Virus record (IMG/VR): IMGVR_UViG_3300008110_001074
Span: 1 to 26,575 of that record
DNA length: 26,575 bases
Source: a virus
Lineage: Duplodnaviria > Caudoviricetes
Reading direction: 5' to 3' (one strand)
This document shows positions 5,170 to 20,903 of the stretch, one piece after another. A program made the translations under genes and the position numbers. Below the pieces are notes generated by a model. The model was not told the DNA's origin, did no database searches, and was given only the letters and a program-made list of their open reading frames with translations. Within the stretch, counting starts at the first letter, position 1. Each line of letters starts with the position of its first letter.

Positions 5170-5177
5170 CATAAATA
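5170..5177 (+). promoter_or_regulatory. T4-like late promoter (CATAAATA)
   Basis: One mismatch to the TATAAATA gp55 consensus, in the short intergenic gap 16 nt before the ATG at 5194. Confidence 0.65.
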
Positions 5178-5193
5178 ACTAAAAAGTATTATA

Positions 5194-8100
5194 ATGCCTA
5201 CACAAGTTCAGTTTAGAAGAGGAAACGAAGGTCAAAATAATAACTTCAAAGGTGCTGCTGGAGAAATCTCCATCAATACCGATACTAATTCTGTTCGTGT
5301 TCATAATGGTATTACCACGGGTGGTTTTGAACTAGCAAGAGATGACCTATCCAACGTAGGAAATGCCAGTATCTCAGGTATTCTTACCGCAACACAATTT
5401 GTTGGCGATGGTTCCGGACTCACTAACCTAGTTGCCACAGGAGTCGGAGTCGAGATACGAGATAATATCTCTGTTGTTGGAACTGCCGCAACAATTGACT
5501 TTGGTGATAATTTAGTAGTATCTCTTGCCGCAGGGGTCGCAACAGTTACTGCACTGAATACATCTAAATGGGAAGCAAGTCCATCTGGTATTGTTACTAC
5601 ATCAAACGTTGGTATAGGGACCACAGACCCACAATATGCTCTGCACGTTATCGGTGATGTAAGAATTACGGGAATTCTTACTATTGGTAATTCATCGGTT
5701 ACTATTGATGGTAATACGAATACGATTAATATTGGAACTGGAGTCACTGTTTATGGAAACACTGGTATTGTAAGTGCCAGTGCTCTTTATGTTAATGGTG
5801 CAAATATTTCTAATTCTTCTGGTTATGCATCTACCGCAGGTATTGCAACATATGCAACTTCTAGTGGTATTGCTACTTATGCATCAACCGCAGGAGTATC
5901 CACAACTCTTACAGCGACCTCAAGTGTCAATACAACTGGTATTATAACCGCAAGTAAGTTTGTCGGTGATGGTTCTGGAGTCACCGGAGTTATTGGTGTA
6001 TCTACCCAGTGGATTACAACATCTGCAGGAATTCATACTCTGGGTAATGTGGGCGTAGGAACCACAAATCCAAAAACAAGATTGGAAATTAATGGAGTTT
6101 TAGGATTTTCTACTGTTAATCGAAATATAAGAATTGGTGATAATACCACTGGAACTAATTTAACTACTGGGTCTGATAATATTTTTATAGGTTCTGGAGT
6201 AGGAAATTCTGCTATAACTGGATATCATAATGTTTCCATAGGGCATCAATCTGGATATTTGGGTGTTACGACAACTACTGTAGGAAATACTTATGGGTTA
6301 CATACTCCAGGAGTTCTTGTTATTCCCTCTCAAGCAAATCAAACATATGTTCTTACAAATCGAAGTGGCAATCTAAGTGGAACCGGATTTGGAATTACAT
6401 TATATAGAAACTCTTTTGGATCAATAAATTCTTGGTCATTAAATAATGGTGGATCTGGGTTTGTTGCATATGAAAGAATTACAATTCCTGGAAATTTAAT
6501 AGGTGGATCAACACCAACAAATGACATAACAATTACAGTACAAACAGTTTCTTCTACAGTAGTTCAATCAATTTTTGCTCCTGGTGTAAGCGTTATACAA
6601 TCTCAAGCAAATCAAAGTTATTCACTAACAAATTTAAGTGGCAATATAAGTGGAACTGGATTTGGAATTAATATTACTAGAAATTCTTTAGGAGAAGCAT
6701 CTTGGACTTTTACTTCGAAGGGAATTAATTTTGTAGAAAATGAAGTAATTGCTATTCCAGGAACTTCCGTAGGAGGATCTAGTCCTTCAGATGATATAAA
6801 ACTACTAGTTGTTTTAGATAATTTTGATTCAAACCGCAGCACTAGAATTGGATACAAGGCAGGATATACATTTGGGGGAAATAAAAATAACTTCTTTGGT
6901 GCTTTCGCTGGATATTCTAATTATAGTGGAAATTATAATAACTTCTTTGGTGCTTATTCTGGATGCAACAACACATCTGGAAAACAGAATACTTTTATTG
7001 GTAAATGTTCTGGTTATTACAATACCACGGGAAATTGGAATGTCATTATAGGAGAAGAAGCAGGATTTTGTAATACTACTGGACCAGAAAACACTATAGT
7101 TGGTTCTTGGGCAGGATTTTATAATACTACTGGTGGATATAATTCGTTCTTTGGATCTGGGTCTGGTCACTATAATCAAACTGGTTGCTTCAATACTTTC
7201 TTAGGAAATTATACTGGATTATCGACTTCAGCATCTTATAAAGTTGTTATTGGATCTGGTGAATTCTGGGGTAACAATTTTGATTCTCCAGATATCACTA
7301 AAGATAAGCAATTGGCGATTGGTGTAAGAACTGATGCTAATCCTGCAGAATACTGGTTAGTCGGTGACGAGAACTTTAACATTGGTATTGGAACCATAAC
7401 CCCGACATCAAAACTCCAAGTAGGAGGAACAGTAACCGCAACGGCATTTGTTGGTGATGGTTCTGGACTGACAGGCATAGTTGGAACTGGATCTGGAGTA
7501 GAAGTTAGAGATAATGGTTCTGTAGTTGGGACAGCATCCACAATTGATTTTGGTGATAACTTAACTGTAACATTCAGTGCAGGCATTATGACCGTTACTG
7601 GTCCTTCTCCCTCAGGATCAGGATCTGATTTTGTAAGGACTAGTGCTGGTATTCATACTTTGGGTAATGTTGGTGTCGGAACCACTAATCCAAGAACAGC
7701 ACTCACCGTCAATGGAATTATTAGTTTCAGTAATACTAACGTAAGAATCGGTGGAACTGATACTGGTTCCAAAGTAACTACAAGCCTTAATAATGTTTTC
7801 ATAGGAGTAGGAGCTGGTAATAGTATTTCAGATGCTGGTGCTGGTGGATATAATATTTTTATTGGTGAGTCTGCTGGAGGTAATGCTACTGGTGGTTATG
7901 ATAATATTTTTATGAATGATTCTGCTGGTTTTAATAATACTACAGGGTCTTCAAACAACTTCTTAGGTTATTATGCAGGACGTTACAACACCACGGGACA
8001 GTTCAATAACTTCTTAGGTCTTTATGCGGGAAGAGGAAACACCACGGGTAGTGATAATAACTTCTTAGGTGATCGTGCAGGAAGAGATAACACTACTGGA

Positions 8101-10179
8101 GTTTCCAACAATTTCTTTGGGTCATATGCGGGGAATAGTAACACCACTGGATATAATAATAACTTCCTAGGTTGTTCTGTAGGATATGCAAACACTTCTG
8201 GGCACGATAATAATTTCTTTGGTGCTCTGGCCGGTAAATGTAATACTACTGGAAATTGGAATAACTTTTTAGGTGGTTGTGCGGGAGAATGTAATACTAC
8301 AGGTTGTTTTAATAACTTTTTTGGTTCTTGGGCGGGATTTTGCAATACCACAGGACAATATAATTCTTTCTTTGGAAATGGTGCCGGTAATTATAATCAA
8401 ACTGGTTCATATAACACTTTCTTAGGAACTTATACAGGTCTTTCGGCATCAGCATCTTATAAAGTTGTTATTGGATCTGGTAAAAATTGGGGAAATAATT
8501 TTGATTCTCCAGACATCACTAAAGATAATCAACTAGCGATTGGCATAAGAACATCATCTGCTCCTGCAGAATACTGGTTAGTAGGTAATGAAAACTTTAA
8601 CATCGGTATTGGAACCACAAATCCCACCACAAAACTACAAGTAGGAGGAACCGTAACCGCCACGGCATTCGTTGGTGATGGTTCTGGACTCACCAATCTG
8701 CCTGCTGGACCTGCCGGAACATCAGACTTCGTAAGAACTAGTGCCGGTATTCATACACTAGGTAATGTTGGTGTAGGAACCACTAATCCAAAAGTAAAAC
8801 TACAAATCAACGGAACTCTAGGATTTGAAGTTTATAATGCTACTGGGATATATACTGGTACTAATATTCTAATTGGAGATATAACAACTGGTTCTAATCT
8901 ACTTCCAGATTCAAGTGGATATGGGTTGAATAATATCTTTATGGGTATTGGTGCCGGTAATAGCACAACCACCGGGTATTATAACAACTTCTTTGGTGCT
9001 TTTACAGGACAATCCAACACCGTTGGATTTAGTAATAACTTCTTAGGTTATCGAGCAGGATACTCCAACACCGATGGAAGTTGTAATAATTTCTTAGGTT
9101 TTTATGCAGGATACTGCAGCACCGCAGGATATGATAATAACTTCTTTGGTCATAATGCAGGATTCTACAACACCACTGGAAGTTATAATAACTTCTTTGG
9201 TAAAAATGCAGGACTCTGCAACACCACTGGAAGTGATAATAACTTCTTAGGTAGGACTGCAGGATACTGCAACACTACTGGAAACAATAATATCTTTTTA
9301 GGTGTAGAAGCAGGATATTTAAACACCACTGGAAGTAATAATAACTTCTTAGGTTATTTTGCAGGAAAATTGAACACCACTGGATGTCAGAATACTTATA
9401 TTGGTCATCAGTCTGGAACTTATGCAGAAACTGGATGTTTCAATACTTTCTTAGGTTCTTACTCTGGAACAATTGTTTCTGCAGCATCCAGTATTATAGC
9501 AATTGGTCATGCTGCAGGATATAATGCATCCGTTGGAACAAGAAATACTTTCCTTGGTTCCTATAGTGGTATGAGTGTAGATGCTGGAAGTAATAGCATT
9601 TATATTGGTGGATTTAGTGGATTAGGAACTGGATCTTATAAGGTTGTAATTGGTGAGGGTGGAAATAAATGGGGCAATCCAAATACTGAGCTATTTGACA
9701 CACCATATCCAAATAAAAATTTCCAATTAGCAGTTGGTGTAAGAACTGATGCTAATCCTTCCAAATATTGGTTAGTAGGTGATGAGAACTTTAACATCGG
9801 TATTGGAACCACAAACCCATCCGAGAAACTATCAGTCACTGGAAATATTGCCCTGAATCAGACTACGGTTTATGGTTCGGTTCAGGCATCAACGGCATCC
9901 ACAAGTGTAACTGGAATTCATTCTGGTCTTTCTACTTCTGTTTATCGCTCAGTTGAATACACAATTCAGGCAACCAGTGGAACGAATTATCAGGCAATTA
10001 AGATTCTTGCCATTCACGATGGAACAACCGCATATGATACTCAGTATGGTAACATATATAATACTGAGGTCGCAACATTTGATGTTGACATTTCGGCAGG
10101 AAATGTTAGACTGGTAGCAGCAGCATCATCAACTTCAACCACGAATTATACTGTCAACTTTATCGCAACTAAAATATAA
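5194..10179 (+). CDS. Tail fibre/adhesin with Mtd_N-like N-terminal anchor and three YadA-like beta-roll stacks
   Basis: The N-terminus [10 protein letters not shown]...[17 protein letters not shown] resembles the major tropism determinant N-terminal domain. It has many 14-aa NTTGxxNNFxGxxAG repeats and a C-terminal YRSVEYTIQ...[11 protein letters not shown] domain. Confidence 0.85.
6835..9660 (+). repeat. Three arrays of degenerate 42-bp (14-aa) tandem repeats, YadA/Hep_Hag-like beta-roll
   Basis: Arrays at about 6835-7255, 7735-8478 and 8860-9660, with consensus xNTTGxxNNF(F/L)GxxAG. Confidence 0.85.
7300..7469 (+). repeat. Dispersed 'neck' module repeat shared between two fibre genes
   Basis: [32 protein letters not shown]...[20 protein letters not shown]. 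Close DNA copies lie at 15635-15804 and ~8521-8690, with further copies near 9715, 17095 and 17635. Confidence 0.85.
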
Positions 10180-10186
10180 TTAAACT

Positions 10187-11089
10187 ATGACTGAAAAAAA
10201 TAAGATTAAGGGTGGATTCTTTTCTGCCACCAATGAACCTAATGCCCCAAAAACATTCTACTTTATGGCAGGACTCCCAAGGTCGGGTAGCTCTGCTCTA
10301 TCGGCAATTCTTAATCAAAATCCTAGATTTTATTCTGGACCTTCCAGTCCCGTCCTTTCTACGATGTTTGCAATTGAGAATCATCTGCAGAATGATGAAC
10401 TATTTTTTGGTTATCCAAAACCGCAACAAGCGGATATGATGATCTCTTCGGTTATTCATCAATTTTATAGTGATGTTGATAAACCCGTAGTATTTGATAA
10501 GAATCGTGCCTGGACTGCACGAGTTCCTTATATTGAAGGATACGTTCGTCAACAGGCAAAGATTCTTGTTCCTGTTCGTGATATTGAAGAAATTCTAACT
10601 TCAATGATTATGATGATTCGTCGTAATCCATATAAGGAAGGGCAACCAAGAATTAATTTTGTTGATGAGCAATTGGTTAAGCAAAATATTCCCATTAATG
10701 ATGATAATCGTTGTGAATTTATTGCCGGTTCTCAGGGTATTCTTGGACAATCGCTCAATGCCGTGATGGAAGCATTCCGTCAGGAGTTTGGTGATAGACT
10801 TTATTTTGTTGAGTATAAGGATCTTGTAAATACTCCAGAAGAAACTCTTCGTGGAATTTATGATTTTCTTGGTGAAGAATATTATGAACACACTTTTGAT
10901 AATCTAGAAAATCAAAATCGGGAACGAGATATTATTACTTATGGTCTTTCCGATATGCACGAAGTTCGTCCGGAACTAAAGGCAACCTCACCAGATCCAT
11001 CCGAAGTTCTTTCTAAGGAAATTTTAGAAAAATGTAAGGGTATGGATTTTTGGAGACAGAAACCATCCGGTCTAAATATTGTTAATTAA
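10187..11089 (+). CDS. PAPS-dependent sulfotransferase (Sulfotransfer_3/TPST-like)
   Basis: 5'-PSB loop FMAGLPRSGSSALSAILNQNP, 3'-PB motif VPVRDIEEILTS, and the typical YFVEYKDLVNTPEETLRGIYDFLG. Confidence 0.88.
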   Translation: MTEKNKIKGGFFSATNEPNAPKTFYFMAGLPRSGSSALSAILNQNPRFYSGPSSPVLSTMFAIENHLQNDELFFGYPKPQQADMMISSVIHQFYSDVDKPVVFDKNRAWTARVPYIEGYVRQQAKILVPVRDIEEILTSMIMMIRRNPYKEGQPRINFVDEQLVKQNIPINDDNRCEFIAGSQGILGQSLNAVMEAFRQEFGDRLYFVEYKDLVNTPEETLRGIYDFLGEEYYEHTFDNLENQNRERDIITYGLSDMHEVRPELKATSPDPSEVLSKEILEKCKGMDFWRQKPSGLNIVN

Positions 11090-11093
11090 GGAG
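11072..11093 (+). promoter_or_regulatory. Possible late promoter variant (CTAAATA) plus strong Shine-Dalgarno (TAAGGAG) for the 87-aa gene
   Basis: CTAAATA at 11072-11078 and TAAGGAG at 11087-11093, 7 nt before the ATG at 11101. Confidence 0.5.
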
Positions 11094-11100
11094 ATTAAAA

Positions 11101-11364
11101 ATGCCACGTCCAGTAAGAGAAGAACTCACCGAAGCTCAACAGGCAGCAAAGCATCTTGAGGCAATGGGTCACAGCGTAGATCTCATTCTTCGCCTTGTTG
11201 CAGAAGATGTTCATTCGGATGAAATTCACGCAACAATTAAGAGAAATACCGACCATCTTGCTCTGATGCTTGGAAAAGGAATTATTACAAATTCAGGAGC
11301 AGATTTGACTAGTTTTCAAGAAGCAGTATCTGATGGTGAAGCATTTATTGCACAACCTGTATAA
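11101..11364 (+). CDS. Small helical hypothetical protein, possible fibre-associated chaperone/cap
   Basis: 87 aa, strong SD, amphipathic helical pattern (SVDLI...RNTDHLALML...DLT). Confidence 0.75.
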   Translation: MPRPVREELTEAQQAAKHLEAMGHSVDLILRLVAEDVHSDEIHATIKRNTDHLALMLGKGIITNSGADLTSFQEAVSDGEAFIAQPV

Positions 11365-11369
11365 TATAA

Positions 11370-11777
11370 ATGAAAAGTATAAATTCTAAACCAATCAAAA
11401 TTAAAATAGAAACAATGCTAGATAGACTTTCTAGAGTTAATGTTGAAACTCTTAGTCCAGAAGAACTTACAAGATATGAAAATTTAGTTAATGATTTGCA
11501 GATTAAATTGCAAGATGTTAATATTATTGATGGTGTAGAATCTGAAATTAGAAAAACTACGATAGCAACTAAAAAAATTGAAACTGCAAATGATACTGCT
11601 AATGAAATTGTTCAATTAATTTCTTCTAGTGATCCAAATACTAACCAAAAAATAACTAAAGGAGTTAGATATATAGAACACGTTCTTGCCGATAGCACAG
11701 TTCTTGAATTAAATCAAGATTTATCTAACTTATCTCAGGTTGTTTCCGACGCAAATCAATACCTTTCAACACTTTAA
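11370..11777 (+). CDS. Helical hypothetical protein whose C-terminal half is paralogous to the 87-aa protein
   Basis: 135 aa. DLSNLSQVVSDANQYL aligns with DLTSFQEAVSDGEAFI of the upstream protein. Confidence 0.7.
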   Translation: MKSINSKPIKIKIETMLDRLSRVNVETLSPEELTRYENLVNDLQIKLQDVNIIDGVESEIRKTTIATKKIETANDTANEIVQLISSSDPNTNQKITKGVRYIEHVLADSTVLELNQDLSNLSQVVSDANQYLSTL

Positions 11778-11795
11778 TATTAAAAACTTTACATT

Positions 11796-12701
11796 ATGAA
11801 AGAATCTTATAGTATTTTCCACGTTCAAGGTGGTCTTGGAAAGCACATTGCCGCCACTGCAGTTGCAAAGTGTATTAAGAACAATTATCCTGATAGAAAA
11901 CTCATCGTAGTTTGCGTCTATCAGGATGTTTTTATTAACTTACCATTTGTCGATAGAGTTTATCAACTGGGAAATACTAGTTATTTCTACCAAAATTATG
12001 TGGAAAATAAGGACTCTCTTATTTTTCATAATGAACCTTATTTCACAACCGATCATATTCATAAGAAACTTCCACTGATTCAAACTTGGTGCAAGATGTA
12101 CCAACTTGAATATAAGGGAGAAACTCCTGAAGTCATTTTCAATGCTCTGCAAAGAAAAATTTCTAAGGATGTATGGGTCAAAAATAACAAACCAGTAATG
12201 GTTATTCACACAAATGGTGGATTGATTTCACCAGATGCAAAACCTTATATGTGGGCACGAGATATGCCCTTTGATATTGCTCAACAGATTGTAGATAAGT
12301 ATCACAAAAAATATACAATTTATCAGGCAACCAAAAAGAATTCTGAGAAATTAGTCAATGCAATTCCAGTTCAATGGGATGAAACAACTCAATTATCCAC
12401 AATGGAATACCTGAGTCTGATTATTCACAGCAAGAAGAGAATTCTAATTGACAGCTGCCTACAACACGCTGCAGCAGCACTAGAACTTCCTTCAGTGGTA
12501 CTATGGAATGGAACAAGTCCAAAGGTCTTTGGGTACGATATTCACAATAATATTGAAACTGAAAAACCTCATAATTTTAAACTTCCCGGAAGTTATTTGT
12601 TTGATTTTGATTTTATGGGAGCAGAACACGAATACCCATTCAATGAAAGAGAAGACATCTTTGATATTGACCAAATTATAGAGGCAATTGAAAATCAATG
12701 A
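11796..12701 (+). CDS. GT-B fold glycosyltransferase, family 9 (heptosyltransferase)-like
   Basis: N-terminal HVQGGLGKHIAATAVAKCIKNNYPD...NLPFVDRVY and C-terminal ILIDSCLQHAAAALELPSVVLWNGTSPKVFGY, matching the GT9 DSGxxHxAAAxxxPxVxLxGxTxP motif. Confidence 0.8.
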   Translation: MKESYSIFHVQGGLGKHIAATAVAKCIKNNYPDRKLIVVCVYQDVFINLPFVDRVYQLGNTSYFYQNYVENKDSLIFHNEPYFTTDHIHKKLPLIQTWCKMYQLEYKGETPEVIFNALQRKISKDVWVKNNKPVMVIHTNGGLISPDAKPYMWARDMPFDIAQQIVDKYHKKYTIYQATKKNSEKLVNAIPVQWDETTQLSTMEYLSLIIHSKKRILIDSCLQHAAAALELPSVVLWNGTSPKVFGYDIHNNIETEKPHNFKLPGSYLFDFDFMGAEHEYPFNEREDIFDIDQIIEAIENQ

Positions 12702-12703
12702 AC

Positions 12704-12728
12704 AAAACCTGCTTCGGCAGGTTTTTTT
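12704..12728 (+). terminator. Rho-independent terminator with C(UUCG)G tetraloop
   Basis: AAAACCTGC-TTCG-GCAGGTTTT followed by a T-tract, directly after the GT stop codon. This is the classic T4-type terminator. Confidence 0.92.
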
Positions 12729-12735
12729 ATAAATA
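12728..12735 (+). promoter_or_regulatory. T4-like late promoter TATAAATA
   Basis: Perfect consensus overlapping the terminator T-tract, followed by an AGGGGA SD-like element and a TTG start at 12765. Confidence 0.85.
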
Positions 12736-12816
12736 CCTGAAAGCTAGTAGGGGATATTGGAACCTTGGCTAATCAGAATTTTAGAGTTAAGAACGGATTA
12801 GAAGTCGGAAATATGA

Positions 12817-14733
12817 GGCGGTGGAACCTCTGATTTTGTAAGAACTAGTTCTGGCATTCATACACTTGGTAATGTTGGCGTCGGAACCACATCTGTTACT
12901 TCAGTATTAAATATTTCATCCCCTGCAATTGGGGATACTTCAAATTATGTTGTAACTTATGGAAGTTTTGATCATTATGCCTGGGGTGGAATTGGAACTT
13001 TCTCAGCAAAGCATTTTGATTTTACAACAGATGGAAATAATAATACTTATGTTGTAGGAGGTCTTTATAGTGATTATGAGGACTATAACCAAAACCCACT
13101 CTATCCATATAGACCTTTTATAGTTAAAATAAATTCATCTCGCCAATTAGTATGGGACGTTTCTCTATCTTCTACAACACCTGATTATAATAAGTCTTCT
13201 GAAGTTTGTGGTATTTGTAGTGCTACAAATGGTGATGTTATAGTGGCTATGAAGTCCTATAGATATACAAATCCAGTATATTCTGAAGAAGGATTAAGTC
13301 AGTTATCATTTGTCAAAATTAATACTTCCGGAACAATACAGTGGCAAACAACAATTAATAATATTCAATTAAATGCTAATGAACTTAGAACCCCAACATA
13401 TGATGTAGCGAATAGAAAAATATTCTTAAACACAGATTCAAGTGGTAATATATATGCTTCAGGTAAATCTGCGGCCGCTCCATTTATCATTAAATTAGAT
13501 TCTTCTGGAAGTGTATCATTTAGTAAAATATTATATAATACAAATGGACCAAAACAATTTGTACTAAAGAATGGCAGCCTATATTGGTTTGGGCAAGTCA
13601 CTAGTTCTGGAACAAAACTAAGAATTGTTAAATTTGATTTGAATGGTGATATTGTTTGGGATAGGTGGTTTAATACTAGAACTGCTTTTGGATATAATAG
13701 CGACAGCCTAGGTTATACCAAATTTAATATTGATGACAGTGAAAACATTTATTTCTTCACAAGAACTCTAGATTGGGACTCTTTTGCACCATTCCCAAAT
13801 CCGAGTTATGATGGATATGGAATAGGGTATCTGGTTGAAAAATATAATTCTAACCTCGAATTTCAGTGGTCCAAAAAAATTAATGCCACTGTTACTGGTG
13901 GCGACGGCACCAGCGAAATTTTTTATGGAATACCCGGTGCTATTGAAATTGATTCAAATCAAAATGTGTATGTAATTGCGCCCAATAATAATGAAAGATC
14001 CAGACATCCTTTTGGTTATGATATCTTTAAGTTAGATTCTTCTGGATCATATGTTTGGAAGAGATTCTTAAGTACTCCAGGATTATCTTATGAGACTGAT
14101 AATAATAACAATGAAACTGATTCAGTATTAATTTCAAAAATAGAAATTAAAGGAAATTATTTAAAATTTGTTGGAGACGTTAGAACTCCCAATGTATCCA
14201 AAGATATTCTTGGTGGGGATAGTAATTTCAATAGAGAAACTAATCCACAAACAGACTGGATTGAAAAATATAATAGTGACACTATATCGACTTTAGTTGC
14301 TAATTTAAATATAAATGGTGATAACATAGGATTATATGGGTCTTATTCTGTTGAAGATTTAGAAATAACAAGACTTCATGAGTATGCAAATTTCACTACT
14401 CGTGATAGATCTTCATTAGTTGTTCTTGATGTTGTAAATTCTAGTGGTGTATCTACTAATTTCTATCCTCTAGTTAGTAATGTTGGTATAGGAACAACCG
14501 TTGGTGTTTCTACATTTACTACCGGTTCAATTGGACTTAGTACTACAACGTTAAAGGATATAAATGGGGGGTCAACATTTGCACAATATGAAAATTATCC
14601 TCACCTAAAATCAGATACTAGAAAATTATTTGATCTTACTATTTCAGGAACAACTAAATTATCAAAATTAATAGTTAGAGATATTGAATTCTTCTGGTCG
14701 GGGTGCAGAAACAGATTATGGTGCGTGTTATAA
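12817..14733 (+). CDS. Middle segment of the split fibre: beta-propeller (SBBP-like repeats)
   Basis: The frame is open from 12817 (the ORF track starts it at GTG 13243). Repeats: TDGNNNTYVVGG, TDSSGNIYASG, IDDSENIYF, IDSNQNVYV, KFDLNGDIVW, KYNSNLEFQW, KLDSSGSYVW. Confidence 0.75.
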   Translation, partial: GGGTSDFVRTSSGIHTLGNVGVGTTSVTSVLNISSPAIGDTSNYVVTYGSFDHYAWGGIGTFSAKHFDFTTDGNNNTYVVGGLYSDYEDYNQNPLYPYRPFIVKINSSRQLVWDVSLSSTTPDYNKSSEVCGICSATNGDVIVAMKSYRYTNPVYSEEGLSQLSFVKINTSGTIQWQTTINNIQLNANELRTPTYDVANRKIFLNTDSSGNIYASGKSAAAPFIIKLDSSGSVSFSKILYNTNGPKQFVLKNGSLYWFGQVTSSGTKLRIVKFDLNGDIVWDRWFNTRTAFGYNSDSLGYTKFNIDDSENIYFFTRTLDWDSFAPFPNPSYDGYGIGYLVEKYNSNLEFQWSKKINATVTGGDGTSEIFYGIPGAIEIDSNQNVYVIAPNNNERSRHPFGYDIFKLDSSGSYVWKRFLSTPGLSYETDNNNNETDSVLISKIEIKGNYLKFVGDVRTPNVSKDILGGDSNFNRETNPQTDWIEKYNSDTISTLVANLNINGDNIGLYGSYSVEDLEITRLHEYANFTTRDRSSLVVLDVVNSSGVSTNFYPLVSNVGIGTTVGVSTFTTGSIGLSTTTLKDINGGSTFAQYENYPHLKSDTRKLFDLTISGTTKLSKLIVRDIEFFWSGCRNRLWCVL

Positions 14734-17700
14734 TACATTTATCGGAGCATATACAACACCTGGTCTTGAAAGCTATAATCCAATTAAATTCAATAATTTT
14801 ATAGGATACAGATCTGGCAATTATATGTCTCAATCGTGTTATAATAATTTTATAGGAGCATTTACCGGATATTATAGTGGTGGATGCTATAATAATTTCT
14901 TTGGAAATTGTGCAGGATCTTTTACTAGTGGATCATCTAGAAATGTTTTTATAGGATGTCGTGCAGGATCCTTTATGACGTTTTCCAATAATTCTGTTGC
15001 TATTGGAGCAGCGGCTGGTGGATGGGGCGGTGGATATGGTGCGTGGAGCAATATATTCATCGGATCCTATGCCGGAGCTAAAACTCCAGACAATATGTGT
15101 TATTATGGATATAATGACGGTAATATTTTTATCGGTGGTGGTGCAGGGTGTCGATCCGCAGGAAACTATAATATTTTCTTTGGTGCGTATGCCGGAGCTT
15201 ATAATGTAACCGGAGCTATTAATAATTTCATTGGATATCACGCTGGTGAATTCAATCAAACCGGAAATTATAACAATTTCTTTGGATGTTGCCCTGGACC
15301 AAATAATACTACAGGAAGTTATAATAATTTCTACGGAAATATTTCTGGATTCTGTAACACTACAGGATGTTACAATAATTTCTTTGGTAACCAGGCAGGA
15401 TACGGAAATACATCTGGATGTGGTAATAATTATTTTGGAGAACAATCTGGAGCGTGCAATACCACAGGATCCTATAACAATTTCTACGGAACTTCATCTG
15501 GATATTGTAACACGACTGGAACTCGTAATAATTACTTTGGTAGTTTTTCTGGAAATTCTACTGAAGCATCATTTAAGGTTATTATTGGATCTGCAAACAC
15601 TCTTCAAGATCGTTTTGATTCCCCAAGCCCAGATAAAGATAAGCAATTAGCAATTGGTGTAAGAACTGATGCTAATCCCGCAGAATACTGGTTAGTTGGT
15701 AATGAGAACTTTAACATCGGTATTGGAACCACAAATCCAACATCCAAACTTCAAGTAGGAGGAACTGTAACAGCAACAGCATTTGTCGGTGATGGTTCTG
15801 GACTCACTAATCTACCAATATCCTCAGATTTTGTAAGAACTTCTGCTGGTATTCATACTCTAGGTAATGTTGGTGTCGGAACCACCAATCCTATATCAAA
15901 ACTTACAATTGATGGAGTTCTATCATTCGCTAAAGAAAATACTGTTATTGATAGTGAAAATTTAAATATCATTGCTTCTACTGGAGTTCCTGCAGGATTT
16001 GCTGGAACTGATGTATCCGGTGGATTTGTTGGTGCTGGATATACTATTAGTGTTGGACTTTCAACATTCCCAACAGCTCCAGAATTTTTCTCAAGTTATC
16101 TGGTAAAAGGATTAAATGGAAACCTTAATGGTAAAGATGCTTCATTCAGTATTTCTAGATGGAATCCTGCTCCAAAGTTTGGGGGTATTCAATATGTTGT
16201 AGTTGATAACTATGGATATGATTTTGTAGTTGGTGAAGTTATTACAATTCCAGGAACTTCAATAGGAGGAACTAGTCCCGGCAACGATGTAAAAGTCTAC
16301 CTTAATGGAGTTGGTCCATCAAGATCACATAATATTGTTATTGGTAAGGATGCTGCTGTTGGTTTTGGATCAACAACATTTTATGGAAACTATAATACTG
16401 TAATTGGATTTGAAGCAGGCAAATGTTCCAATACTAGTATGGACTTTCCATTTGCTAATTGGTGGGATGGTGCGGGATCTAATGTAATAATTGGACCAAA
16501 ATCTGGATATTATAATCAATCATATAATAATGTTTTTATAGGAAATAAGGTAGGATATTCAAATACTACTGGATATGAAAATATATTCCTAGGATCTTGT
16601 GCTGGATATTATAATTCAACTGGTTATGGAAATAATTTTATTGGTATAAATGTCGGATATAATAACACTACCGGTTATTATAATAACTTCTTTGGTTATG
16701 GATATTCTTCTGGAAATACCACTGGAAGTTATAATAACTTCTTTGGTTATTCTGCCGGTCAATGTAATACGACTGGAAGTTATAACAACTTCTTTGGTTA
16801 TTATACGGGATGTTCCAACACCACTGGAGAGTGCAATAACTTCTTTGGGTATCAAACAGGATATTATAATGAAACTGGATGCAATAACAACTTCTTTGGT
16901 CAGTATGCAGGATTATGCAATACCACAGGATCCTACAATAATTTCTACGGAACTTCATCTGGATATTGTAACACGACTGGAACTCGTAATAATTACTTTG
17001 GTAGTTTTTCTGGACTTTCTACCGCAGCATCATTTAAGGTTATTATTGGATCTGGATGCGTTCTTCAATATCCTTTTGATTCTCCAAATCCCAATAAAGA
17101 CCTTCAGTTTGCCGTTGGTGTAAGAAGTGATTCTTTCTCATCCAGGTATTGGATAACGGGTGATGAGAATATGAATCTGGTATTCTACAATTCAGTCATT
17201 TTTAATAATGATAATATAAAAATAGGATATTTTGCCGGATGTTGCGCTAATGGTGGCGGTAATAATGTTTTTATAGGGTATGGTGCAGGATATAATAATT
17301 CAGGAGCATCAGATAATAACTTTATAGGACAAGGTGCGGGGTATTATAACACAACAGGACAATTCAATAGCTTCTTTGGAGAGCGTTCTGGAAATTCCAA
17401 TACCATAGGATGTTGTAATAGTTTCTTTGGGAGAATGTCTGGATGCTGTAATACTACAGGATCTCGCAATAGTTTCTTCGGCACAAGATCTGGAAGTGAT
17501 AATCAAACTGGAAATTATAATTTATTTTTGGGTGCTTATAGTGGAATTTCAACGGCATCTTCTAACAAAGTAATTATTGGAGTTGGTACTGTAATTAGTA
17601 GTACTAGATACCTATTTGATTCACCAGACACCACCAAAAATACTCAATTAGCAATCGGTGCAAGAACTGATGCTAATCCAAGTAATTATTGGTTAGTAGG

Positions 17701-17878
17701 CGACGAAAACTTCAATGTTGGTATTGGAACCACCAATCCAACATCCAAACTAACCGTAGGTGGTGATGTTAAGGTTGGGATCAATACCTCACAAGGTGTC
17801 ATTCTCACTTCTCCAAACGGAACGGCATATCGTCTAGTCGTTGATGATTCTGGTAATCTTTCTACTACACTTGTATAA
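14684..17878 (+). CDS. C-terminal segment of the split fibre: YadA-like beta-roll adhesin
   Basis: Three stacks of 14-aa repeats including a canonical NSVAIG motif, neck modules, and a C-terminal GVILTSPNGTAYRLVVDDSGNL cap. No clear SD precedes the TTG. Confidence 0.8.
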   Translation: MNSSGRGAETDYGACYNTFIGAYTTPGLESYNPIKFNNFIGYRSGNYMSQSCYNNFIGAFTGYYSGGCYNNFFGNCAGSFTSGSSRNVFIGCRAGSFMTFSNNSVAIGAAAGGWGGGYGAWSNIFIGSYAGAKTPDNMCYYGYNDGNIFIGGGAGCRSAGNYNIFFGAYAGAYNVTGAINNFIGYHAGEFNQTGNYNNFFGCCPGPNNTTGSYNNFYGNISGFCNTTGCYNNFFGNQAGYGNTSGCGNNYFGEQSGACNTTGSYNNFYGTSSGYCNTTGTRNNYFGSFSGNSTEASFKVIIGSANTLQDRFDSPSPDKDKQLAIGVRTDANPAEYWLVGNENFNIGIGTTNPTSKLQVGGTVTATAFVGDGSGLTNLPISSDFVRTSAGIHTLGNVGVGTTNPISKLTIDGVLSFAKENTVIDSENLNIIASTGVPAGFAGTDVSGGFVGAGYTISVGLSTFPTAPEFFSSYLVKGLNGNLNGKDASFSISRWNPAPKFGGIQYVVVDNYGYDFVVGEVITIPGTSIGGTSPGNDVKVYLNGVGPSRSHNIVIGKDAAVGFGSTTFYGNYNTVIGFEAGKCSNTSMDFPFANWWDGAGSNVIIGPKSGYYNQSYNNVFIGNKVGYSNTTGYENIFLGSCAGYYNSTGYGNNFIGINVGYNNTTGYYNNFFGYGYSSGNTTGSYNNFFGYSAGQCNTTGSYNNFFGYYTGCSNTTGECNNFFGYQTGYYNETGCNNNFFGQYAGLCNTTGSYNNFYGTSSGYCNTTGTRNNYFGSFSGLSTAASFKVIIGSGCVLQYPFDSPNPNKDLQFAVGVRSDSFSSRYWITGDENMNLVFYNSVIFNNDNIKIGYFAGCCANGGGNNVFIGYGAGYNNSGASDNNFIGQGAGYYNTTGQFNSFFGERSGNSNTIGCCNSFFGRMSGCCNTTGSRNSFFGTRSGSDNQTGNYNLFLGAYSGISTASSNKVIIGVGTVISSTRYLFDSPDTTKNTQLAIGARTDANPSNYWLVGDENFNVGIGTTNPTSKLTVGGDVKVGINTSQGVILTSPNGTAYRLVVDDSGNLSTTLV
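15455..17054 (+). repeat. 139-bp direct repeat (15455-15593 and 16916-17054)
   Basis: Manual alignment gives 133/139 identity with a 75-bp perfect core encoding NFYGTSSGYCNTTGTRNNYFGSFSG. Confidence 0.9.
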
Positions 17879-18605: not shown

Positions 18606-20900
18606 ATGCCTGCGTTTAGTACATATAATCGAAACGGATTTAATTCCAGACTTAGAGATCAGGGTATAACTAGACAGGTTTTCTCAAGATTTGGATCAAC
18701 AGCAACAACATCAACAATTTCTCGTTCTTGTGTTGCCGAAGATTCCGAGTACTCAGTCTATGTAACTTCAAAGCAATCGAGTGGAGCAACACTTGTAAAT
18801 CCCATAGTCTCAAAGTTTGATAAAAAGGGCGACGAGATTTGGAGTGTCGCAATAGAGGATACTTTTTCTGCCGATAAGTATACACTATATGCTAAAAATG
18901 TTAATGTACCTCTAAATGGAACCATAAGTGTAAATGTAAATTCTTTTAGTACAATCTCATTCTGGTTTTCAAAAATTACTGCGACCGGAATTGCTCCTTC
19001 TTCAGATTTATTGGCATCAACAACCAACAGTGTTTTCTGGATCGTTATCAATAATGATCCAACTAGAAAATACAAATTATCATTTTCGGGAAATGAAACT
19101 GATTCTGGAACATATTATCGTCAATCAATTAATAAAAATCAATATGATGCCACGAGATTTATAAATGATGTAAATTCTAATGTCATAGCACTGGGAGATA
19201 CTTTTCAATTATTTTTTGAAAATACCTATAAGTATGATGAAATCCCGATTGCAATTGATGCAGCAGATGACATTATTGTGGCATATAGATCATATAAAAA
19301 TTCATCTTCTATTCTTTATAGTGATAATTTAAACGGTAGTAATTGGACGACTTATTGTGGAAGTTCTTCTAACTTTACACCAAACACAACAGATCTTCCG
19401 GCACCGAACGGAACATTTACGGCATCGAAAATAGTTAGAAATAATGTTGCAAGTTGTAATTCATCAACATCTTGGGGTAGACTTTGGAATTCATCTTCAT
19501 TAGTTTCAACCGGAACAAACTATACCATAAGCATATATGTAAGAGGTGCAGTTGGTGGAGAAGTTGTAAGTTTTGGAATTGCCGATGGAAATGCCGCTAA
19601 TTATACTTTAACGACTCAATGGCAAAAGATAACCTATACGGCAAATGCACTGAGCACTTCAAGGGGGTTGCAAATATTCAGTAGTCAAACCAATATAACT
19701 TTTTATATGTGGGGTGCAAGAGTCGAGAGGACAAGTTTGATTGATACTGAAAGAAGATATAAGATATCGGTATTTAAATTGGCGAAAAACAATGGGAGTA
19801 TTAAGTGGTTCAGTGAATTAAGTTTAAAATCTGATGCTTATATTGAAAGCTTTACGACTACGGCACAAAGTGATGTTAAGGCAATTACTACCGATTCAAA
19901 TAAAAATATCTACTTATGTGGTAGTGCCTTTGCCGCACAAGGTCCAAATAGTGGTGTAGGAAACAATTATGGATTTGTTACGAAATTAAATGAATATGGA
20001 AATTTAATTTGGAAGAGCTTAATGTATGCCTCTCAGGGTCCTATACCAGAATCTGCAACCGATGCGGCACAACAAATAACTTCATTATCACTCAGCCCAG
20101 ACGGGTTCCTGTATGCCTCTGGTGGGAGCACTACAGTAAATGGTGCCGGTCCTTGCCTTTATAAACTAAACCCAACAACTGGAAACTTAGAATCTGGTTG
20201 GCCAGTAATGTACAATCTAGATGTAAGTTTAAATAAGTTTTTATTCATAACAGAAATTGATACTGACAGTGAAGGAAATATCTATGGTATTGTGGGAAAC
20301 TTGGGAGAACCAGAAAGTGTGTTTGACTATTCGGTTATAAAGTTTGATTCAAATGGTAATTTATTGTGGTGCAATCGTTATGATACTAATGATACTACAG
20401 AATCGGGATATAATTTAATTATAGATAGGACAGATATAGTTTATGTATCTGGACGTTGTGATACAGTTTTAAATGATAGGCCAGGAGTACTGGGATTAAA
20501 TAAGGATGGAAGTGTCGAAGGGTTTAGGAGAATACGATATAGAAGAGAACCTTTCATAGATGAAACTAGTATTTCAATGAGAAAATCAAAAACATTCTCA
20601 ACTACACTCACTAGAAATCGCCATACATTTATTTTGAATGAGACTGGATTGAATGGTTTTGTAATTGGAATGATACAGAAAGAAAAAACGAGTGTGGGCA
20701 CATATGAAACTCCTTTGGATAGATATATTGTTAGTGGATCAAATCCGATTATAACCGACATTATATCAATTTTAATTTCTAGGGGATATTTTATAGAATA
20801 TGGAACTGATAATTATATGACACAGGCATTTGGAATTTCAAATACTATATCGCCACTATTAGATCACAGAGTTCTTTCTAAAGTTGAAGTTCCACAATAA
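18606..20900 (+). CDS. Beta-propeller virion protein with an inserted carbohydrate-binding-like domain
   Basis: Propeller blades KFDKKGDEIW, TDSNKNIYLCG, TKLNEYGNLIW, DTDSEGNIYG, IKFDSNGNLLW. The insert ILYSDNL..SNW...NYTISIYVRG...LTTQWQKITYT...YMWGARVE resembles CBM4/9. Confidence 0.75.
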   Translation: MPAFSTYNRNGFNSRLRDQGITRQVFSRFGSTATTSTISRSCVAEDSEYSVYVTSKQSSGATLVNPIVSKFDKKGDEIWSVAIEDTFSADKYTLYAKNVNVPLNGTISVNVNSFSTISFWFSKITATGIAPSSDLLASTTNSVFWIVINNDPTRKYKLSFSGNETDSGTYYRQSINKNQYDATRFINDVNSNVIALGDTFQLFFENTYKYDEIPIAIDAADDIIVAYRSYKNSSSILYSDNLNGSNWTTYCGSSSNFTPNTTDLPAPNGTFTASKIVRNNVASCNSSTSWGRLWNSSSLVSTGTNYTISIYVRGAVGGEVVSFGIADGNAANYTLTTQWQKITYTANALSTSRGLQIFSSQTNITFYMWGARVERTSLIDTERRYKISVFKLAKNNGSIKWFSELSLKSDAYIESFTTTAQSDVKAITTDSNKNIYLCGSAFAAQGPNSGVGNNYGFVTKLNEYGNLIWKSLMYASQGPIPESATDAAQQITSLSLSPDGFLYASGGSTTVNGAGPCLYKLNPTTGNLESGWPVMYNLDVSLNKFLFITEIDTDSEGNIYGIVGNLGEPESVFDYSVIKFDSNGNLLWCNRYDTNDTTESGYNLIIDRTDIVYVSGRCDTVLNDRPGVLGLNKDGSVEGFRRIRYRREPFIDETSISMRKSKTFSTTLTRNRHTFILNETGLNGFVIGMIQKEKTSVGTYETPLDRYIVSGSNPIITDIISILISRGYFIEYGTDNYMTQAFGISNTISPLLDHRVLSKVEVPQ

Positions 20901-20903
20901 ATA
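20896..20903 (+). promoter_or_regulatory. T4-like late promoter (AATAAATA)
   Basis: ATAAATA core overlapping the upstream stop codon, about 20 nt before the GTG at 20923. Confidence 0.55.

Follow-up and report, generated by a model that had tools for sequence, protein, structure and literature searches.

The locus described here, in which genes for a sulfotransferase (ST) and a GT9-fold protein (GT) lie among long repeat-containing fibre genes of a phage, belongs to a 26.6-kb virus record (IMG/VR IMGVR_UViG_3300008110_001074, 26,575 nucleotides, referred to throughout as the window). Its closest described counterparts come from both bacteria and phages. TibC and AAH have a GT9-type catalytic fold and are encoded next to the beta-solenoid adhesins TibA and AIDA-I, which are autotransporters where the window has a phage fibre; TibC modifies serines of beta-helix adhesins (PMC4358343). 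In the operons of Iyer et al. 2010 (PMC2938197), which we liken to the present locus by description only, a sulfotransferase with 3′-phosphoadenosine 5′-phosphosulfate (PAPS) enzymes nearby is proposed to modify a co-encoded fibre-like protein. Those operons are bacterial, pair the sulfotransferase with dioxygenases and tail-collar or collagen-like substrates in a hydroxylate-then-sulfate scheme, and are described without a GT9 protein. Phage-encoded glycosyltransferases act on virion proteins in mycobacteriophages (Freeman et al. 2023, as cited in PMC12619734 and PMC12801897), where capsid and tail-tube subunits are modified and the available text describes no fibre, sulfate or sulfur linkage. 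Finally, the host recognition cluster of pelagimyophages and cyanomyophages (PMC7029224) places glycosyltransferases among the tail-fibre genes of T4-like aquatic phages, although these are read as modifiers of the host O-chain and the main text does not contain the word 'sulfotransferase'.

In the window the tail and fibre genes all lie on one strand, and those considered here are as follows.

5194..10179, + strand: fibre 1, 1661 aa, with Mtd_N at its N-terminus and stacks of 17-residue repeats
10187..11089, + strand: ST, a predicted PAPS-dependent sulfotransferase of 300 aa in the RaxST-homologue family (PF13469, AlphaFold model)
11101..11364, + strand: small protein A, 87 aa, of a family that adjoins beta-roll fibre genes
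11370..11777, + strand: small protein B, 135 aa, distantly paralogous to A and extended at its N-terminus
11796..12701, + strand: GT, a GT9-fold (GT-B) protein of 301 aa, assigned by fold match and profile alignment
12765..17878, + strand: fibre 2, a single 1752-aa gene in contig L024, in pieces in the window

The first five open reading frames (ORFs) were confirmed at these coordinates, with gaps of 7, 11, 5 and 18 bases, and bear out the order given in an initial annotation of this DNA (1661-aa fibre, sulfotransferase, two small paralogues, GT9-like protein, terminator). We propose that the phage's own beta-roll fibres are the target of decoration by ST and GT, a reading to which we give a probability of roughly 0.55 on sequence and modelled structure. 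It is the best reading because the link between enzymes and fibres survives a control comparison and spans unrelated phages as well as bacteria of the candidate phyla radiation (CPR). Decoration of virion fibres had been suggested in the initial annotation, and the enzyme-fibre link sustains this part of it, whereas the argument from sequons and HMW1C is not sustained, the enzymes are not an obligatory pair and sulfotyrosine on the repeats is weakly supported.

Association of the enzymes with repeat fibres

Searches for either enzyme found 87 viral loci, many of which end at contig ends, falling into 51 clusters at 90% identity. ST and GT occur together in 39 of the 51, within 1.5 kb of each other in 38 of those 39; the 17-residue repeat is present in 27 (19 within 1.5 kb) and some fibre-type protein in 41. 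The co-occurrence check proposed in the initial annotation was also run in reverse, by scanning part of the viral collection with a DNA pattern built for the repeat and, as control, a pattern matching a common fibre motif, dropping loci below 5 kb (91 repeat and 71 control loci kept) and excluding one two-repeat cluster. Both enzymes stand beside 13 of 24 repeat-fibre clusters as against 0 of 42 control fibre clusters in loci of at least 12 kb (p 1e-7, a value that overstates independence because the controls are more diverse and kin share genes), and beside 15/37 as against 0/62 at 5 kb or more. Among 40 whole repeat records, chosen because no enzyme had been seen nearby or the flanks were short, ST was found in 18 and GT in 17, compared with none of the 26 whole control records examined out of 36, two of which gave weak repeat matches.

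The association extends to cellular genomes. A GT homologue was present, on the fetched DNA, in 9 of 78 bacterial or archaeal loci found by the ST profile, and in three CPR genomes a pair of GT copies is grouped with ST and a large repeat protein (L108:2218-8186, L114:7995-15420 and L119:7980-16809). Within the relatives of one CPR genome GT is present in only 4 of 151. We conclude that a conserved cassette of fibre-linked enzymes is real. Both enzyme families are large, with 2633 and 2981 clusters reaching E 0.001 or better. The divergences of ST and GT are correlated (rho 0.84, n 31), a correlation in which kinship has a share. One GT copy of the CPR loci is degenerate at the GGxGK loop, the L114 repeat protein carries a Peptidase_S74 domain, and in L108 and L114 ST comes directly after a gatB-like gene.

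Further neighbours in the 51 clusters are GT2-like genes (10-11), carbamoyltransferase (9), adenosine 5′-phosphosulfate (APS) kinase (7), methyltransferase (6), 2-oxoglutarate (2OG) oxygenase (6) and epimerase (2). The APS-kinase-like genes near ST (L016:11179-12030, L048:5707-6120 and L072:12082-12549), one of them fused to a cytidylyltransferase-like domain, are candidates for PAPS supply. Kelch-like NYGWFGGG repeat proteins, almost free of Cys, adjoin ST, 2OG oxygenases and a GT4-like gene in L009, L018, L019, L027 and L088 (phage S-SKS1), and a second modification module around these proteins is possible.

The two enzymes are separable, because each occurs in phages without the other. Our survey of complete GenBank phages covered 18 records with the 17-residue repeat, AG-345-E02 and P-SSM5 lying outside the enzyme tests. 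By profile, GT is present in HTVC111P (gp53), P-SSM2 (gp307) and AG-345-L05, and HTVC112P has a 96% copy of gp53. By position the enzymes lie beside the small gene linked to the fibre, or between the two. The gene of HTVC111P, a Pelagibacter phage of 31.6 kb, encodes a homologue (E 6e-25) with the same GGxGK, overlaps the fibre stop and lies ahead of a homologue of small protein A. P-SSM2 gp307, annotated as hypothetical (L517:2283-6656, gp307-gp311), is a distant homologue with Arg at the base position; it lies between fibre genes, ahead of a carbamoyltransferase and the annotated heptose-pathway genes gp309-311. ST was not found in HTVC111P, HTVC112P or P-SSM2, while S-SKS1, S-SRM01 and S-SCSM1 have ST with neither GT nor the repeat, the ST of S-SKS1 and S-SRM01 adjoining kelch-like or RCC1 repeat genes. 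The GT profile found nothing in vir515, CRP-1, CRP-7, CRP-831, Venkman, two Manatee Spring phages, Axy12 and LR756500, and the ST profile nothing in the eight of these nine that were searched with it. An obligatory ST and GT pair is therefore rejected, with GT alone in HTVC111P and P-SSM2 and ST alone in S-SKS1. Absences from a single query are unreliable here, since tblastn with one sequence detected GT in AG-345-L05 alone, whereas the profile also brought up the homologues of HTVC111P and P-SSM2.

A GT9 fold without the catalytic aspartate

The GT9-like transferase of the initial annotation is sub-threshold by sequence and clear by fold. GT scores 16.2 bits against the Pfam GT9 profile (cut-off 22), and sequence and profile searches of the PDB with GT gave no matches. 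NCBIfam gave only sub-cut-off matches. The GT model (pLDDT 91.6) finds its best folds in a Veillonella GT9, WaaF, TibC and WaaC at Z 22.5-18.9 (PDB entries including 2H1F, 1PSW, 3TOV and 4RAP), followed by a chloroplast NDH subunit at Z 16.9 and, as next unrelated GT-B, a match at 10.3. In the chloroplast NDH subunit the GT9 fold serves a non-catalytic role. XcOGT gives E ~1e-3 and TM 0.33, the GT9 rows ranking far higher, and the phage DNA glycosyltransferase HY126 gives E 7e-4 and TM 0.32. HMW1C belongs to the OGT/HMW1C-type family GT41. The suggested parallel with HMW1C-type N-glycosylation is poorly supported, the fold of GT being far closer to GT9 than to the OGT/HMW1C type and the sequons hardly exceeding composition. 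Fibre 1 has 52 sequons as against 42.0±5.6 in shuffles (p 0.044) and fibre 2 has 42 as against 38.2±5.3 (p 0.26), or 3.1 and 2.4 per 100 residues, the range in five further structural proteins from the window being 2.0-2.6; the supposed richness of these adhesins in sequons is mostly compositional.

In WaaC, D13 is the catalytic base and D261 and H266 bind heptose (10.1101/2021.06.16.448588). Profile alignment (hhalign) of GT to four E. coli K-12 heptosyltransferases places K16 on WaaC D13 (probability 92%) and matches D219 and H224 to D261 and H266. Across 83 distinct homologue rows the D13 column holds K in 75, R in 1 and a gap in 7, and D219, H224 and the GGxGK loop are invariant in 41/41 sequences. 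Neither this change from Asp to Lys nor the fibre cysteines described below were noticed in the initial annotation. GT therefore resembles the lipopolysaccharide (LPS) heptosyltransferases WaaC and WaaF (CAZy GT9) in fold and in its heptose-site equivalents, yet differs from them in K16, in an identity of 11-13% and in a phage host that probably lacks the acceptor, lipid A bearing 3-deoxy-D-manno-oct-2-ulosonic acid (Kdo). A T4-like cyanophage is the likely source of the window because psbA-family genes occur in related contigs (4 of 5 related records tested, the relatives having been found via ST and GT); the sequencing runs in which the window DNA occurs bear the labels freshwater, lake or fungus metagenome. 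As most cyanobacterial LPS is without heptose and Kdo, with listed exceptions (PMC4515613), the host probably lacks the acceptor that GT9 enzymes normally use. The fold match to TibC (4RAP; Z 19.3, root-mean-square deviation (rmsd) 3.4, 262 aligned) covers TibC 91-386 only, GT having no N-terminal beta-barrel, and where TibC has a four-Cys iron finger and an Asp110 base (PMC4358343), the conserved columns of GT are without Cys and have Lys at the base position.

GT follows the cysteine content of the fibres

Fibre 1 has three main stacks of a 17-residue repeat, TGxxNNFxGxxAGxxNT (period 17 in 1613 of the spacings), and all 16 of its cysteines fall inside the stacks (residues 591-665, 994-1050 and 1297-1415). 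A YadA-like beta-roll fold is suggested for it; an Atlas feature match of 0.97 links it to a cluster automatically named YadA-like head, while Pfam YadA gave no match for fibre 1 or fibre 2.

In GenBank phages negative for GT, the eight fibres with countable stacks have 0 Cys over 86 repeat units, and in those positive for GT the ratio of Cys to units is 6/21 in HTVC111P, 10/22 in HTVC112P, 43/65 in AG-345-L05 and 1/8 in P-SSM2. A second, independent pattern sample retained 78 of 135 loci (at least 4 kb), giving 65 clusters with at least four units; GT stands beside 3 of 10 clusters with at least 1% Cys and 0 of 55 below it (p 0.003), and on whole records in 3 of 10 Cys-rich as against 0 of 21, five of the 21 being at least 90% complete. 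Ser content in this sample showed no trend with GT (p 0.64), and neither did Tyr. The close relatives L005 and L010, which have ST and no GT on short records, show no Cys in 11 units and a single one in 6, respectively. Furthermore, the 23 GT-carrying loci have 1.2-8.5% Cys, fibres that are linked to GT but built of other repeats (L072-L074, L080, L082, L087) reach a best value of 2.1-5.8% and the three surface proteins that adjoin GT pairs in CPR bacteria 1.8-2.6%, as against a control median of 0.21%. The cysteines do not form fixed pairs; they occupy five variable positions of the repeat, each at a frequency of 9-28%.

The sulfotransferase

The claim of a PAPS sulfotransferase holds well, ST scoring 58.6 bits against PF13469 (cut-off 27) and being a full-length homologue of RaxST. 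Its AlphaFold model (pLDDT 91.5) is closest to TPST1, tick TPST and TPST2 (Z 17.7-18.1, the best with rmsd 3.8 over 238 aligned residues), the next row falling to 14.9 and heparan 3-O-sulfotransferases to 13. Sulfation by TPST favours protein tyrosines in an acidic context. Although human TPST1 and TPST2 provide the best fold, such context is rare in the fibres, where the tyrosines preceded by an acidic residue number no more than 3 of 74 and 6 of 116, and the sulfotyrosine proposed for Tyr-rich repeats is for this reason weakly supported. A search with the ST profile over 251 Xanthomonadaceae-side genomes, 250 of which were scored, led to a gene of L508 with R11, H50, S118 and R129 (numbering of PMC6637879) followed by HlyD, C39-ABC and MFS genes. 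ST is 26% identical over 277 residues (E 1e-30) to this raxST in its raxSTAB context, and its R32 and S139, invariant in 45/45 family sequences, align with RaxST R11 of the 5′-phosphosulfate-binding motif (5′-PSB) and S118 of the 3′-phosphate-binding motif (3′-PB). The window differs from the Xanthomonas locus in having no raxX, raxA or raxB, and among its ORFs no HlyD or C39-ABC protein that could form a RaxA/RaxB-type exporter was found. Most raxST homologues are reported to act on other substrates, and the bacterial settings in which RaxST homologues are found are many (PMC6637879). Freshwater Comamonadaceae metagenome-assembled genomes (L093-L097) hold ST homologues 56-59% identical to the phage ST, as possible donor or recipient of a transfer; there a 612-617-aa gene with a weak ST match follows the ST homologue, and GT is absent.

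A model for fibre decoration and its alternatives

We propose a model in which GT and ST would modify the beta-roll fibres in the host cytoplasm late in infection. GT would bind a nucleotide sugar, possibly a heptose in some phages at least, given that heptose-pathway genes follow the homologue in P-SSM2, and would add the sugar to exposed repeat residues, Cys being the likeliest acceptor. A GT without a general base would call for an acceptor that needs none, such as a thiol, and a Cys thiolate could be stabilised by K16; with the donor site kept, the base replaced by Lys and GT following fibre Cys, a thiol-glycosylating enzyme is the simplest reading. Cys as the acceptor is nevertheless tentative, a little over half as probable in our estimate as the fibres being the target. 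ST would take host PAPS, to whose supply APS kinases near ST in some relatives (7/51 clusters) may be relevant, and sulfate a fibre hydroxyl, either of Tyr or another side chain or, where both enzymes occur, of the added sugar. The resulting coat may alter the charge, stickiness or stability of the fibre. The fullest version, in which Cys residues of beta-roll fibres are S-glycosylated by a widespread Lys-type GT9 clade found in phages and CPR bacteria, and a RaxST-like enzyme sulfates the same fibres to give a thio-linked sulfated coat, is more speculative still.

Several observations weigh against fibre decoration or its cysteine form. The repeat-fibre set is taxonomically narrower than the control fibres, and related phages have genes in common. 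The fibre apparently does without the enzymes in the nine GenBank repeat phages that lack a GT match, the loss of the catalytic Asp also fits a dead enzyme, and P-SSM2 combines a single Cys in 8 units with Arg instead of Lys. Of the Cys-rich records of the second sample 7/10 are without GT, all of them at most 33% complete, and 15 of 143 control fibres have at least 1% Cys. Loci with both ST and GT include some whose large repeat proteins are Cys-poor (0-0.1% in L018, L019 and L027, 0.2% in L036), and the 17-residue repeat was not found in 13 of 17 such records, most being 9-40% complete and several having other Cys-rich repeats. Tyr does not significantly track ST (4.4 vs 3.5% in ST-linked and other repeats, p 0.17), its content being 5.3-8.8% in ST-only fibres, 0.5-0.8% in HTVC111P and HTVC112P and up to 11% in enzyme-free fibres. 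Finally, no sugar or PAPS pathway genes were seen in the window.

The enzymes might instead modify the host surface, as O-antigen or sulfated exopolysaccharide, against other phages or grazers, the fibre neighbourhood being a variable host-recognition island. This is the published reading for glycosyltransferases of that region (PMC7029224, PMC12801897), the best GT folds are LPS heptosyltransferases, and neighbours in relatives include GT2, methyltransferase, carbamoyltransferase and APS kinase genes (6-11/51) and epimerases (2/51). It leaves unexplained, however, why GT follows fibre Cys, why HTVC111P with its 31.6 kb keeps GT alone in a module of fibre and small gene, and why a base that transfer to a sugar hydroxyl would require was lost; with heptose and Kdo missing from most cyanobacterial LPS (PMC4515613) as a further point, we consider this explanation unlikely. 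We are similarly doubtful that the GT-fold protein is a fibre folding or assembly factor, or performs other chemistry, with Cys serving disulfides or metal and ST acting separately. The lost Asp, the chloroplast NDH subunit and the second, degenerate GT copy of CPR genomes would all suit such a role, but not the retention of D219, H224 and the GGxGK loop in every one of 41 sequences, the heptose-pathway genes after the P-SSM2 homologue, or Cys scattered over five variable positions without fixed pairs.

O-linked decoration of virion proteins, possibly other than both fibres, with a sugar on Ser/Thr or a glycan and sulfate then placed on the sugar, has a precedent in the serines modified by TibC (PMC4358343). 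The repeats are rich in Ser/Thr, and the proximity of ST and GT (38/39 clusters) and their correlated, kin-shared divergence also speak for it. Ser content does not track GT, though, the nearest folds of ST belong to sulfotransferases of protein tyrosine, those acting on carbohydrates scoring lower (Z 18 vs 13), and each enzyme is found without the other, which makes this form improbable. Least plausible is a phage DNA or small-metabolite substrate, even though phage glycosyltransferases often modify DNA (PMC12619734), carbamoyltransferases and 2OG oxygenases lie near the enzymes in relatives and RaxST homologues occur in many bacterial contexts (PMC6637879), given that the enzymes sit in an apparently late fibre module, that HY126 is only a weak fold match and that the Cys link would be unaccounted for.

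Small proteins, transcription signals and fibre 2

The two small proteins are weakly related paralogues, as had been claimed (20% identity, E 3e-4; family profile E 4e-4). Protein B was seen in 3 of the 51 locus clusters and protein A had no Atlas match. Homologues of A adjoin the repeat fibre in seven GenBank phages whether or not the enzymes are present; protein A is likely a fibre assembly helper, and the enzymes would therefore be inserts in a fibre-plus-helper module. DUF7936 stands in for A beside or between ST and GT in 14/51 clusters (e.g. L004:10917-11234).

The five-gene unit is bounded by the following putative signals.

5170..5177, + strand: box CATAAATA resembling a T4-type late promoter, within the 24-base spacer upstream of fibre 1
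12704..12732, + strand: intrinsic-terminator-like hairpin with UUCG loop and T tail, from folding energy
12728..12735, + strand: second late-promoter-like box TATAAATA, overlapping the terminator tail upstream of fibre 2

CATAAATA, which resembles the T4-type late-promoter consensus, occurs no more often than chance predicts (1 match vs 3.17 expected). ATAAATA words occur three times in the window (5171, 12729 and 20897), each on the + strand at a gene boundary, and not at all on the - strand. The UUCG hairpin at 12704-12725 has a folding energy of -12.2 kcal/mol (z -5.5; 0/200 shuffles equally good), and was not among the calls of a simple terminator scan of the window. From such motifs, the five genes may be co-transcribed late. 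A second fibre directly after the unit, as initially described, is borne out in its adjacency but not as part of the same unit, fibre 2 being placed in its own because TATAAATA sits on the terminator tail; on the strength of terminator and second box together, a single transcription unit spanning both fibres is rejected. The third ATAAATA word (20896-20903), at the end of a 764-aa gene, is a possible late box for a 238-aa gene. In the 764-aa protein itself (18606-20900), SBBP beta-propeller repeats occur together with a head-spike fibre domain, which scores above the NF048003 cut-off.

Fibre 2 is fragmented in the window, with ORF pieces at 13243-14733 and 14684-17878, because this assembly lost 80 bases at 12814/12815 and 65 near 14686-14691 (145 in total) relative to L024. 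That contig is 99.99% identical to the window and has one 1752-aa ORF with 31 Cys, the repeat stacks occupying the C-terminal 60%. The 80 bases are present in contigs of 4/4 runs, which also have extra bases at the second site, and true breakage of the gene is accordingly rejected as assembly loss. In contig L023, otherwise identical, an 11-base insertion (L023:4975-4985, window ~13499) breaks the N-terminal part of fibre 2, as variant or assembly error.

Implications

In a literature search that left subscription journals mostly outside, we found no account of tail-fibre sulfation by a phage sulfotransferase and nothing linking the P-SSM2 heptose genes with tail-fibre glycosylation; judged by title and start of abstract, no paper on cyanophage sulfotransferases or phage S-glycosylation concerned this system. 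Natural contrasts fit for testing the proposed fibre decoration now exist in the cultured HTVC111P, HTVC112P and P-SSM2 with GT only, in S-SKS1 and S-SRM01 with ST only, and in CRP-1 and Venkman, whose Cys-free fibres come with neither enzyme. If the proposal is true, a base-less GT9 mechanism would be defined, and fibre glycosylation, perhaps on sulfur, together with protein or glycan sulfation would enter phage biology. Furthermore, the glycosyltransferases of tail-fibre islands in aquatic phages, usually filed as modifiers of host LPS, would in part be builders of the virion.

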